Shown one piece after another: positions 2,792-22,792 of a stretch of DNA of 64,000 nt (positions are counted from its first letter, which is position 1; each line of letters starts with the position of its first letter). The translations under genes were made by a program, and so were the position numbers. The stretch is from Pseudomonadota bacterium (GTDB lineage Bacteria > Pseudomonadota > Alphaproteobacteria > Caulobacterales > Caulobacteraceae), in contig CAUJHW010000119.1 of NCBI GenBank assembly GCA_963205005.1, positions 14,438 through 78,437 of the forward strand. The letters are read 5' to 3'. The notes below the pieces were generated by a model that was given only the letters and a program-made list of their open reading frames with translations, did not search any database and was not told the origin of the DNA.

Positions 2792-4159
2792 TTGATCCAG
2801 TCCGCACGCCTGAAGGTCCTTGTCGATGCGCCCGTCCGCCCGGACGGCGCCTACGTTCTTTACTGGATGCAGCAGTCGCAGCGCGCGGAATTCAACCCGG
2901 CGCTGGAGTTTGCCATCGAGCAGGCCAACGGCCTGGGCCTGCCGGTGCTGGTCTGTTTCGGCCTCACCGCCTTCCCGGAGGCCAATCTCCGACACTACGA
3001 CTTCATGCTGCGCGGTCTCGCCGAGGTGCGGCGGCGCCTCGCCGACCGGGGCGTCGGCTTCGTGATCCGCAAGCAGCCGTCGCACGAACTGGCCCGGGCT
3101 CTGGCGGCCGATGCGGCGCTGGTGGTGTGCGACCGGGGCTATCTGAAGATCCAGCGGACATGGCGGGCGAAGCTGGCCGAGAGTCTCGATCGCCGCCTCG
3201 TGCAGGTGGAAGGCGATGTGGTGGTTCCCGTCGAACTGCCCTCCGGAAAGCACGAGTACGCCGCCCGCACGATCCGGCCGCGCATCCAGCGTCTCCTGGA
3301 GGACTATCTCGCACCACTCGCCGCGCGTCCGTCGCGGGTCCGCGCCGACGCCCTCAGGATCGTCGGCGACATCGATCTGGATGACATTCCGGGGGTGCTT
3401 GCGAACCTGCAGATCGACGCCGCGGTCGGTCCGGTCCGCCGCTTTGAGCCGGGGGAAGGCGCGGCCCGGGCGCGACTGGAGGCCTTCGTCGCGAAGGCCC
3501 TGCCCCGCTACGGCGCCGAGCGCGGCCGGCCGGAGGCCAACGTCGCCTCGCACATGAGCCCCTACCTGCACTTCGGCCAGATCTCCCCGGTGGAGATTGC
3601 GCTGGCGGCGCGCCGGTCGCCGGCCTCCGACAGCCGCGACAGCTACCTTGAGGAACTGATCGTCCGGCGCGAACTGGCGATGAACCACGCCTTCTACGCC
3701 CCCGACTACGACCGCTATGAGGTCCTGCCGGAATGGGCGCGCAAGACGCTCGCCGATCATGCCTCCGATCCCCGGCCCCACCTCTACGACCGCGCCCGGT
3801 TCGAGGCCGCGCAGACCCATGATCCCTACTGGAACGGCGCCATGCGCGAGATGCGGGCGACCGGCTACATGCACAATCACCTTCGCATGTACTGGGGGAA
3901 GAAGATCCTCAACTGGTCGGCCGGCCCGGAGGAGGCGTTCGAGACGATCCTGGCGCTGAACAACCGCTGGTTCCTCGACGGCCGCGACGCGAACTCGTTC
4001 ACCAACGTCGGCTGGATCTTCGGCCTGCACGACCGCCCCTGGGGTCCCCAGCCGGTGTTCGGCACGGTCCGCTCCATGGGCGCCAACACCTTCAAGAAAT
4101 TCGACGCCGACGCCTATCTGCGCGACGTCACCTGGCTGGAGGTGGCCGAGCGGGGCTGA
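2792..4159 (+). CDS. phr: class II-type CPD DNA photolyase
   Basis: YVLYWMQ, SHMSPYLHFGQIS, MHNHLRMYWGKKIL and LDGRDANSFTNVGWIFGLHDRPW motifs. Start placed at TTG 2792 inside ORF 2330..4159. Confidence 0.88.
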   Translation: MIQSARLKVLVDAPVRPDGAYVLYWMQQSQRAEFNPALEFAIEQANGLGLPVLVCFGLTAFPEANLRHYDFMLRGLAEVRRRLADRGVGFVIRKQPSHELARALAADAALVVCDRGYLKIQRTWRAKLAESLDRRLVQVEGDVVVPVELPSGKHEYAARTIRPRIQRLLEDYLAPLAARPSRVRADALRIVGDIDLDDIPGVLANLQIDAAVGPVRRFEPGEGAARARLEAFVAKALPRYGAERGRPEANVASHMSPYLHFGQISPVEIALAARRSPASDSRDSYLEELIVRRELAMNHAFYAPDYDRYEVLPEWARKTLADHASDPRPHLYDRARFEAAQTHDPYWNGAMREMRATGYMHNHLRMYWGKKILNWSAGPEEAFETILALNNRWFLDGRDANSFTNVGWIFGLHDRPWGPQPVFGTVRSMGANTFKKFDADAYLRDVTWLEVAERG

Positions 4160-12974: not shown

Positions 12975-13931
12975 TCAGCGGGACTTGCGCGGGTGAGCCT
13001 TGAAGAATTCCCACATGGCCGCGCTGGCGTCGTAGTCCTGGGTCGGCGGATTAGCGACGGCCCGGCCCGGAGCGCCGCCCGGCCACGCATGGCCGTTGTT
13101 GGCGACCACGTTGAACACCACGTCGGCCCCGGACCTGCAGCCCGTCCAGGTGGTGGTGCGGACGAAGGCGGTTTCGGTGGTCTTCGACGCGCCGCAGCCG
13201 TTGGCCTTCGCCCAGTACTCGGCCTGGGCGAAGGCGGGGGCCACCGGGCGATCCTCCGCCGGCGGGCCACCCTGCAGCACGTCGTCGCGCAGGCCCAGCG
13301 GACCACCTGCACCGGGCACGGTCCTGTCCACGGCGCCGACGATGATGAAGGCCGGCACCGGTCCGGCGGGGGGCGGCTCGTCTCCGAACACCGCGCCGAC
13401 CACCGGGGCGATGGCGGCGATCCTGCCCGACAGCTCCCGCGCCAGGCGATGGCTCATCATGCCGCCGTTGGACATGCCGGTCACATAGATCCGGCCCGGA
13501 TCGGCGCGTCCGGAGGCGACCAGCCGGTCGATCAGCGCGGAGATGAACCCGACGTCGTCAGACCTGTTGCGCATCGCGAAGGCGCAGCAGTGTCCGGCGT
13601 TCCACGTCAGGATCCTGCCGCCCGCCATCGCGCCGGTCCCGCCCGGGTAGATCGCGATCAGCCCCTCGCGCGCCGCCAGGGCGTCGAAGCGGGTCATGGT
13701 GATGGCATTCTCCGGATTGCCGCCGCCGCCGTGCAGCAGGATCACCACCGGGGCCGTGGCCTTGCCGGAGGAATAGTCGTGGATCACCGCGCGCCGGGGC
13801 TGGCCGCCGATGGAGAAGGTCTCCTCCGACATCCGGCCCTCGGCCGCTGACGCCGCGCCCGATCCGGCGGCGAGGATCCCGAGGGCCAGGGCCACGGCGT
13901 GACCCAGGCGGCGAAGGTGGAACTGCGGCAT
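12975..13931 (-). CDS. exported alpha/beta-hydrolase esterase (PHB depolymerase/LpqC-like)
   Basis: Signal peptide, LHGGGG, WNAGHCC, GMSNGG nucleophile elbow, GHAWPG. Confidence 0.87.
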   Translation of the reverse strand: MPQFHLRRLGHAVALALGILAAGSGAASAAEGRMSEETFSIGGQPRRAVIHDYSSGKATAPVVILLHGGGGNPENAITMTRFDALAAREGLIAIYPGGTGAMAGGRILTWNAGHCCAFAMRNRSDDVGFISALIDRLVASGRADPGRIYVTGMSNGGMMSHRLARELSGRIAAIAPVVGAVFGDEPPPAGPVPAFIIVGAVDRTVPGAGGPLGLRDDVLQGGPPAEDRPVAPAFAQAEYWAKANGCGASKTTETAFVRTTTWTGCRSGADVVFNVVANNGHAWPGGAPGRAVANPPTQDYDASAAMWEFFKAHPRKSR

Positions 13932-14097
13932 GGCGCGACGCCTCTCAGCAATCTGGAAGCGGCAGCCTAGTCCGGTCCGGCGGCCGGCGGAGCCTGCGCG
14001 CGAGGCATGGAGTCAGGCGTCTGCGTCGCCTTGACCGGCGGCGGATGTTGCCCCCGCCGTGAAACTACAACCTGCGCGGAGTCGCCAAGCGCCATTT

Positions 14098-14112
14098 GTT
14101 CTGCTTTTGTTC
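14098..14112 (+). promoter_or_regulatory. LexA (SOS) box GTTC-N7-GTTC
   Basis: GTTCtgcttttGTTC exactly matches the alphaproteobacterial LexA direct repeat, 23 nt upstream of ATG 14136. Confidence 0.8.
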
Positions 14113-14135
14113 GAGCTCCCCGAACGGAGTTTCTC

Positions 14136-14348
14136 ATGGTCAAGGTCAACTATCTCGGCGTCACCGACCCCAAGGCCGCCTTCGAGGCCCTACGACCGTT
14201 CCGCCGGGCGCTGCTGGAAATGAAGGGCCGCTGCCGGCCCTTTCATCCCGACTACCTGATCCTCGACGCCGTGGACAAAGCCCTTACCACCGCCGCCTAT
14301 CACTTCACCCGCGAGCCGGACTTCTATTCCGGCCAGCCCCACGGCTGA
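14136..14348 (+). CDS. 70-aa hypothetical protein, probably SOS-regulated
   Basis: GGAG RBS upstream of ATG 14136; coding-like codon usage; MVKVNYLGVTDPKAAFEAL... Confidence 0.75.
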   Translation: MVKVNYLGVTDPKAAFEALRPFRRALLEMKGRCRPFHPDYLILDAVDKALTTAAYHFTREPDFYSGQPHG

Positions 14349-21994: not shown

Positions 21995-22792
21995 TCAGGC
22001 GGCGGCGAGCCGCCGGCGGCGCATCGCCGTACCCACGGCGCCGAAGCCAAGGATCATCAGCGCCCAGGTGCCGGGTTCCGGCACCGCGTTGTCGATCGGC
22101 CAGCCGATGGCGAACGTCTGGTGCTGCGGGTTCCGGGCCTGATCGGTGATCGTGTAGACCCGGTCGTTGGCGTCGGCCAGCGAGCTGTAGTTCCCCAGGC
22201 GGTAGTCGTTGAAGTACTGCTGGTACTGCCCGTACTGCGTCGCGTTCAGATTGTTGTTGCGGACCGTCACCGTACGGGTCGGGTTGGCAACCGCCCAGAT
22301 CGCCGCCTGGATCGCGGCGGTGCGCATGGCGGTGTCGAAGTCATTCGGCTGGGCCATGTGCAGCAGATAGCCGGTGTCGACCAGGTTGGTCAGGCTGGTG
22401 ATCTGCGCGTTGCTCAGCTCGTTGGCCGGCGCGGTCGGGCCGTAGTTGGTGAACAGCGCCTGACCCGGATCGCCGTACGTCGAGGTGTAGGTGTAGTTCA
22501 GGGTCGTGTTGATATACATCGCATGGAATATATCGATGCAGAACCCGAAGATGTTGTAGTCGGAGTTGTTGAACTGCGCGCCGGTGCCGAAGTCGTTCAC
22601 GCGGAAGGTCACGCCGTTCGAGTAGACCGCGCCCACGCCCGAGATGTTCGCCTGGAACGTCGTGTTCATGGTGGCGTATTCGACGTAGATCGTCTGCGAG
22701 GCCGAGGCCGGCGACGCGAGGGCCATGGCCGAAGCCACGGCGGCGCCCGCCAGAATTTTCACCCCGGACATTTTCAGTTCAAACTTGGCCAC
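21995..22792 (-). CDS. PEP-CTERM (PEPxxWA) surface protein with a thioester-domain-like passenger
   Basis: GTG 22792 after AAAAGGGGA; signal peptide; FCID, IQAAIW and HQTFA motifs; C-terminal VPEPGTWALMILGFGAVGTAMRRRR. Confidence 0.88.
   Translation of the reverse strand: MAKFELKMSGVKILAGAAVASAMALASPASASQTIYVEYATMNTTFQANISGVGAVYSNGVTFRVNDFGTGAQFNNSDYNIFGFCIDIFHAMYINTTLNYTYTSTYGDPGQALFTNYGPTAPANELSNAQITSLTNLVDTGYLLHMAQPNDFDTAMRTAAIQAAIWAVANPTRTVTVRNNNLNATQYGQYQQYFNDYRLGNYSSLADANDRVYTITDQARNPQHQTFAIGWPIDNAVPEPGTWALMILGFGAVGTAMRRRRLAAA

Follow-up and report, generated by a model that had tools for sequence, protein, structure and literature searches.

Does a perfect SOS operator in front of an unrecognized 70-codon reading frame mark a further gene of the DNA-damage response in Caulobacteraceae? 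The question is raised by positions 14098-14348 of a 64,000-nucleotide stretch of Caulobacteraceae DNA, which we refer to as the window (C119:14438-78437). The window belongs to an assembly of 183 contigs (4.25 Mb, 69% G+C), and the nearest public relatives are metagenome-assembled genomes of Phenylobacterium and Caulobacteraceae. A sequence-only reading had proposed that a LexA box at this site controls a small protein of unknown role.

Coding potential of the small70 locus

The proposed layout is present exactly as read from the letters. The direct repeat GTTCTGCTTTTGTTC (GTTC-TGCTTTT-GTTC, of the form GTTC-N7-GTTC) occupies 14098..14112 on the forward strand and is the predicted LexA operator. 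It is followed on the same strand by a Shine-Dalgarno GGAG at 14126..14129, which lies 6 nt 5' of the ATG at 14136 and is found in the same place in relatives. The frame is open from this ATG, 23 nt after the box, to the stop codon at 14346-14348, and encodes precisely the 70 amino acids that had been quoted. We refer to this coding sequence (14136..14348, forward strand) as small70.

Codon statistics indicate that the frame is a gene. The G+C content of small70 is 0.85 at third codon positions versus 0.44 at second positions. Relative to its closest relative (locus L001), 31 codons of small70 have changed synonymously and 6 non-synonymously, with 5, 2 and 31 differences at codon positions 1, 2 and 3, and the other close relatives behave alike. 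Judged from these alignments, purifying selection acts on the 70-aa frame, and by the same comparison the 70-codon ORF is a real, conserved protein-coding gene. A longer ORF of 113 aa that starts at ATG 14007 was rejected because the relatives begin at the methionine of MV(K/R)V and the 5' part is unconserved as protein. The search of the region against Rfam gave no match, and the predicted fold of the leader RNA did not differ significantly from shuffled sequences (z = 0.55). We therefore also discarded a terminator-like hairpin in the leader (14105-14129), whose stability is no greater than that of the shuffles and whose conservation is only partial.

The neighbors of small70 in the window are metabolic genes (an esterase, a methyltransferase and an enoyl-CoA hydratase), with no mobile-element gene near. 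The esterase gene is divergent (12975-13931, minus strand), and the box lies 167 nt upstream of its start. A monocistronic gene is the best explanation for 14136-14348. The description of the gene as unannotated stands only in part: relatives are called as genes in public records, yet every one of them is a "hypothetical protein" or unnamed.

The operator and the SOS genes of the host genome

The GTTC-N7-GTTC repeat is the published SOS box of C. crescentus, where it overlaps the promoter (da Rocha et al. 2008, as tabulated in Table 1 of PMC9578287). The bare pattern is not rare in the genome studied here. The window holds 7 copies versus 1.3 expected from shuffles, and the genome holds 154 versus approximately 70 expected from base composition. 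Most of the genomic copies fall within coding sequence, with spacers rich in G+C, and the pattern by itself thus proves little. In the six other exact matches in the window (3671, 4878, 7878, 11733, 32550 and 47992), the spacers are likewise rich in G+C and the TGTTC feature is missing; these matches probably arise as a by-product of the coding sequence and are not operators.

We filtered the 154 matches for the best sites, retaining those that are intergenic, have an A+T-rich spacer and carry a T before the second GTTC. Approximately 30 sites remained, and site 14098 has every one of these features. Its exact 15-mer GTTCTGCTTTTGTTC occurs only twice in the 4.25-Mb assembly. Exact boxes also lie upstream of the genome's own genes for LexA (TIGR00498, 1.5e-53) and RecA (TIGR02012, 3e-174), and further boxed genes encode a PA0069-family radical-SAM protein, YifB/ComM and a UDG-linked radical-SAM repair protein. 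This list is a typical alphaproteobacterial SOS set. Both the boxes at lexA and recA and the entry in PMC9578287 uphold the earlier assignment of GTTC-N7-GTTC as the alphaproteobacterial LexA operator.

Two observations on boxed sites elsewhere in the assembly deserve mention. Four contigs (C70:122670, C166:2606, C168:8571 and C181:35368) end 136 nt after a near-identical boxed unit, consisting of TTGACT, a LexA box of the form GTTC[TC][TCG][CT]TTATGTTC and an ORF start (MRTFADMHARHAFGLEALAEM...). The assembly appears to have broken here at a LexA-boxed repeat that is present in multiple copies. On contig C148, the LexA box at position 22677, GTTCGTGATTTGTTC, precedes an ORF of 278 aa (MRDLAMDREGG...) by 106 nt.

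Operator conservation among homologues

Far from lacking the box, approximately 66 of the 75 homologous loci have an exact copy at the promoter, in either orientation, or lie within a boxed operon; the locus sets behind this count partly overlap, and the loci are not all independent. Among 28 loci on genome contigs, 22 have an exact box that lies 25-91 nt upstream of the start codon, and 3 have a box with one mismatch. In the last 3 (P. haematophilum DSM 21793 and two metagenome-assembled genomes), small70 comes second in an operon, and the exact GTTCTGCTTTTGTTC lies at -334. For 20 more distant loci, we found an exact box within approximately 100 nt in 13, a boxed operon in 2 and a doubtful distant box in 2; the other three (L044, L046 and L048) have no box within 1 kb. 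An exact box is also present in 23 of the 24 evaluable metagenome loci and at both loci on viral contigs. Even the sole homologue found outside Caulobacteraceae, in a set of approximately 400 other alphaproteobacterial genomes, has a box (GTTCCCATAATGTTC) 4 nt before its ATG.

The box occurs in either orientation and anywhere from -17 to -101, and its chance rate is approximately 0.4% per 100 nt. Such retention amounts to a strong phylogenetic footprint, and the persistence of the box despite changing orientation and distance argues for selection on LexA binding. Synteny is not conserved: the window neighbors are kept only in L001, which has the same esterase, and the neighbor lists of three other contigs are unrelated. 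The box thus belongs to small70 and not to the divergent esterase. Box conservation across homologues supports the proposal of a LexA-controlled small protein, and we regard LexA regulation of small70, as predicted from these comparisons, as strongly supported.

The small70 protein family

The predicted protein has a mass of 8.0 kDa, a pI of 8.9 and a GRAVY of -0.35. Its maximum Kyte-Doolittle mean over 19 residues is 0.59, and it has no transmembrane segment. The AlphaFold (AF2) model (pLDDT 85) is a soluble amphipathic hairpin of two helices (residues 12-31 and 38-58), with a conserved CRPF motif in the interhelix loop and a conserved tail, HFTREPDFY..P (AAYHFTREPDFY). Hydropathy and model agree with the earlier view that the protein has no transmembrane helix and is not SidA-like.

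In a word-index search, 35 clusters of close relatives came up at 59-91% identity, and every entry was either unnamed or labeled "hypothetical protein". Searching 1.84 billion representatives exhaustively with HMMER extended the family to 148 relatives (representatives at 50% identity), all of them small proteins. The alignment (A1) has 14 invariant columns; nearly all members share the start methionine, and length is conserved. The family has no significant match in Pfam, NCBIfam, PHROGs, PADLOC, PDB or BFVD. Specifically, nothing was found in Pfam or NCBIfam at E <= 1, the PDB profile search gave nothing better than E = 0.6, and Foldseek with the model gave nothing better than E = 1.5 and no match in PDB or BFVD at E < 0.3.

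Many relatives are single chains of approximately 150-165 aa that contain two copies of the domain (L035, L036, P0069, P0070, P0072 and P0074-P0079). Both tandem fusions that were checked lie behind a LexA box, at -95 in L035 and at -38 in L036. These natural fusions suggest that small70 works as a dimer, and the working form may be a dimeric four-helix bundle.

The distribution of small70 is patchy. It is present in 43 of 301 Caulobacteraceae genomes and in 6 of 27 genera, and the rest of the class yielded one weak match in approximately 400 genomes. Named carriers are P. haematophilum, C. ginsengisoli, C. henricii and C. endophyticus, together with a few unnamed Caulobacter strains; none of the searches returned a relative in a C. 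vibrioides or C. crescentus record. small70 is best described as the founding member of an undescribed small-protein family of Caulobacteraceae that is new to the LexA regulon.

ZnR and its link to small70

The second genomic copy of GTTCTGCTTTTGTTC, at C72:10341, precedes an ORF of 95 aa (C72:10375-10662) that we call ZnR. The encoded protein is Arg-rich and carries four cysteines in two CxC knuckles (MADGSRQFQ...RCACG...RLRCQCG...GGIHVFR; region C72:10322-10662). Its family comprises >210 clusters, all "hypothetical", and has no significant match in Pfam, NCBIfam, PHROGs or PADLOC. The ZnR model (pLDDT 72) shows a small domain rich in beta structure, in which four cysteines and many arginines are invariant, and Foldseek found no PDB match at E < 0.3. 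The library searches with small70 and ZnR otherwise returned noise, for instance Drt4 (E = 0.07) and DUF7324 (E = 0.33). The best hit of the PDB profile searches with either protein, a TetR regulator (E = 0.019), has no plausible relation to them and was discarded.

All 17 Phenylobacterium ZnR genes that we fetched have the box approximately 30 nt upstream of the start codon, and in 15 it is the identical 15-mer. In other genomes the two genes are joined. In Caulobacter loci L033 and L034, a box-ZnR-small70 operon has the small70 homologue 8 nt after the ZnR homologue, behind a promoter of the form TTGACT-N17-GAGAACAATATAGGAAC-GGAG-ATG; the ZnR proteins of these operons match that of the window genome at 3e-14 (BLASTP). 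The P. haematophilum group (L005-L007 and L054) has the same box-ZnR-small70 order, and a third genus (L052, identical to L020) has a LexA-boxed operon in the reverse order, small70-ZnR. In the window genome, small70 (C119) and ZnR (C72) are unlinked.

Co-occurrence of the two genes exceeds expectation, with 20 of 301 Caulobacteraceae genomes carrying both versus 7 expected (Fisher p = 3e-7, a value that is uncorrected and confounded by phylogeny). ZnR is nevertheless undetectable in 23 of the 43 small70-positive genomes and small70 is missing from 29 of the 49 ZnR-positive ones, and the genes are adjacent in only approximately 10% of loci and in 0 of 26 metagenome loci. A functional partnership of small70 and ZnR is likely, but it is not obligatory because each family often occurs alone. 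This also argues against a type II toxin-antitoxin pair, which we rejected since the genes are unlinked here, often singly present and adjacent in so few loci.

Two candidate relatives of ZnR were also discarded. P0194, a small70 protein fused to a Cys4 domain, aligned with the ZnR profile in hhalign only at E = 0.78, and the third, Cys-rich gene of L034 only at E = 0.03 (probability < 2% in both cases). In the C. henricii-type loci L029-L032 (e.g., L030:933-986), an Arg-rich leader ORF of 17-25 codons (MPTQRPRRRAPRRVCNP) directly follows the LexA box, at the place where ZnR would be, and has an ATGA overlap with the start of small70. It may be the N-terminal remnant of a deleted ZnR or a translational-coupling leader.

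A promoter shared by small70 and ZnR

Because the ATG of small70 follows the box after only 23 nt, the promoter must sit upstream of the box or over it. Alignment of promoters anchored on the box revealed two upstream elements in the window, both on the forward strand. The first is A-rich, gaaactacaacc (14061..14072), corresponds to a AAAAACAGCC-like stretch common to small70 and ZnR promoters, and is possibly UP-like. The second is -35-like, CGGAGTCGC (14077..14085; consensus kGAsTCGC, with TTGACTCGC in some relatives), and contains a GANTC (CcrM-type) site at 14079-14083; the operator of the window follows this element at 14 nt. Promoters of the Phenylobacterium type have a fixed order: the A-rich stretch, kGAsTCGC, 11-12 variable bases, the 15-nt box, 12-20 nt, GGAG and ATG. 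If the conserved element is the -35, we infer that the box would cover the -10 and start-site region, the classical geometry of repression. A simple sigma-70 scan found no consensus promoter, and the -35/-10 assignment is taken solely from the alignment.

In 14 of 21 small70 promoters and 14 of 18 ZnR promoters (28/39), the GANTC site precedes the box by exactly 19 nt; the background rate is 0.0013 per nt. Its middle base varies between G and C. The same register is seen in the window and in L001-L003, L013, L015, L026, L047, L054, L056, L059 and L061-L070. GANTC is the methylation site of CcrM, and its fixed position may reflect merely the -35 element or a link of promoter activity to methylation state.

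The promoter of ZnR on C72 combines an operator identical to that of the window with the same GGAGTCGCC element, and the composite GA[GC]TCGC-N9-13-box occurs in the window genome only at the small70 and ZnR genes. Furthermore, the promoter spacer in the window, GGAGTCGCCAAGCGCCA, is also the spacer of the operon promoter in L054 of the P. haematophilum group. This identity points to a split of the operon in which a copy of its promoter was carried along.

Discussion

We consider it likely that small70 is a gene of the LexA regulon whose product is a soluble hairpin dimer acting by protein binding, with ZnR as the preferred partner. In undamaged cells, a LexA dimer on GTTC-N7-GTTC would block RNA polymerase at the -10/start region. 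Upon DNA damage, RecA-stimulated self-cleavage of LexA would free the promoter, and an mRNA with a short leader of approximately 25 nt would be translated into the 70-aa two-helix hairpin. Two hairpins would then pair as a four-helix-bundle dimer, as the many tandem fusions of two copies among the relatives suggest. The dimer would act by binding another protein rather than by catalysis, and the partner we favor is the co-regulated Arg-rich Cys4 protein of approximately 95 aa, ZnR. In the resulting complex, which would be specific to damage and act on a DNA transaction, small70 would serve as a dimeric adaptor. Because neither protein has a sequence or fold relative of known function, this biochemical action is a guess.

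A bolder version of this scheme, which we put forward only tentatively, is that small70 and ZnR are two halves of an undescribed SOS effector module that is specific to Caulobacteraceae, ancestrally one LexA-boxed operon and split repeatedly. Each half would have kept the same promoter, including the CcrM-type GANTC in fixed register with the operator, so that the promoter could integrate DNA damage, sensed through LexA, with the state of replication or methylation. Together the two proteins would affect a DNA transaction or the cell cycle by a mode of action unlike that of any known SOS protein.

LexA-controlled small proteins are also known from phages: Tum of coliphage 186 and gp7 of Bacillus phage GIL01 are, respectively, an antirepressor and a LexA-binding protein. 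small70 resembles them as a small-protein gene behind a LexA operator with two relatives in viral contigs, and ZnR as a small Cys4 protein, whereas the small70 of the window lies outside any prophage and has no PHROG match or detectable homology to them. A mostly domesticated SOS switch of a mobile element is an unlikely rival. small70 would then be antirepressor-like or would bind LexA or another repressor, with ZnR as a Cys4 partner of antirepressor type, and the gene would stem from a prophage or integrative element, the chromosomal copies being remnants or co-opted genes.

The relatives on viral contigs speak for such an origin and keep this rival alive. Two of 2.9 million viral contigs carry small70 homologues, both behind LexA boxes; that of L073 immediately follows a tyrosine integrase (phrog_1, 2.6e-39) and that of L072 lies beside tail and DNA-ejection genes, although the latter gene is at a contig end and may be host flank. 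The Caulobacter operon of L034 follows an ORF that by eye resembles an integrase C-terminus, and an integrase fragment lies 1.7 kb away in L050. The changing genomic position among close relatives and the patchy distribution point in the same direction. However, the window locus is set among metabolic genes, the PHROG and PADLOC searches with small70 and ZnR were empty, and ZnR had no match in the viral contigs. Most genomes have one copy, and sequence divergence tracks the genus. Regarding L073 itself (positions 2950-3201 of a 55.8-kb IMG/VR contig), this distant relative has 32% identity to small70, and its LexA box follows TTGACC and ends 2 nt before the ATG, a position that suggests a leaderless transcript. 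Its context makes it a candidate for an SOS-responsive gene within an integrative element.

Less probable still is a soluble feedback or checkpoint factor that acts alone, by binding RecA filaments, LexA, or a protein of the divisome or replisome, with ZnR as a mere neighbor. DinI and gp7 of phage GIL01, which bind RecA and LexA, and SulA, which targets a divisome or replisome protein, would be its parallels, and SOS regulons commonly hold such modulators (in Caulobacter, SidA and DidA). The small, soluble, helical nature of small70, its dimer-like tandem fusions and its frequent occurrence without ZnR fit this explanation. Yet no similarity in sequence or fold to DinI, SulA, RecX or any PDB entry was found, and chance can hardly explain the operon linkage with ZnR in three genera and both orders together with the shared promoter.

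That the box is a chance match or serves the esterase, the small ORF being outside SOS control or no gene at all, is strongly disfavored and highly improbable: the bare pattern is common (154 genomic copies), the box does lie upstream of the esterase and L001 has the same esterase neighbor, but the box travels with small70 and not with the esterase in approximately 70 other loci with unrelated neighbors, the 70-aa frame is under purifying selection, and the region has neither an Rfam match nor a significant RNA fold.

small70 also differs from known small SOS proteins. SidA of C. crescentus is an SOS-induced inner-membrane division inhibitor of 29 aa with a single transmembrane helix. It shares with small70 its small size, a LexA-boxed promoter and the bacterial family, whereas small70 has 70 residues, is hydrophilic and is modeled as a soluble hairpin. 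We accordingly rejected a membrane division inhibitor of the SidA/DidA type (approximately 30-70 aa, one transmembrane helix) on the basis of the low hydropathy (0.59), the GRAVY of -0.35 and the amphipathic hairpin. DinI of E. coli, an SOS-induced RecA modulator of 81 aa with an alpha/beta fold and an acidic C-terminal helix, is likewise a small soluble protein that acts by protein binding, as is predicted for small70. In contrast, small70 is all-helical and mildly basic (pI 8.9), with no match to DinI in sequence or fold. Membership in the DinI, SulA or RecX families was rejected given the lack of any match to small70 in Pfam, NCBIfam, PDB profiles or Foldseek.

The regulon resembles that of C. 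crescentus in its direct-repeat operator, which the lexA, recA, comM/yifB and radical-SAM genes of the window genome carry. It differs in that no relative of small70 was found among C. crescentus/vibrioides records, and small70 is thus probably not in the published regulon.

Beyond E. coli, SOS regulons still contain many damage-induced genes of unknown role, and those of Caulobacter have already yielded new biology (SidA, DidA, BapE and HigBA-linked factors). Our analysis defines two small-protein families that have no known relatives, are evolutionarily linked to each other and have the LexA operator as their most conserved feature. Since the proteins are small, soluble and found in type strains that are in culture (P. 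haematophilum DSM 21793, C. henricii and C. ginsengisoli DSM 18695), their function is directly testable, and the apparent absence of both families from C. crescentus offers a clean heterologous background there. Through the fixed GANTC beside the operator, a connection of methylation state with the activity of SOS promoters also becomes testable. What is new here is the linkage of small70 with ZnR, and the findings together are solid new biology from a non-model clade.
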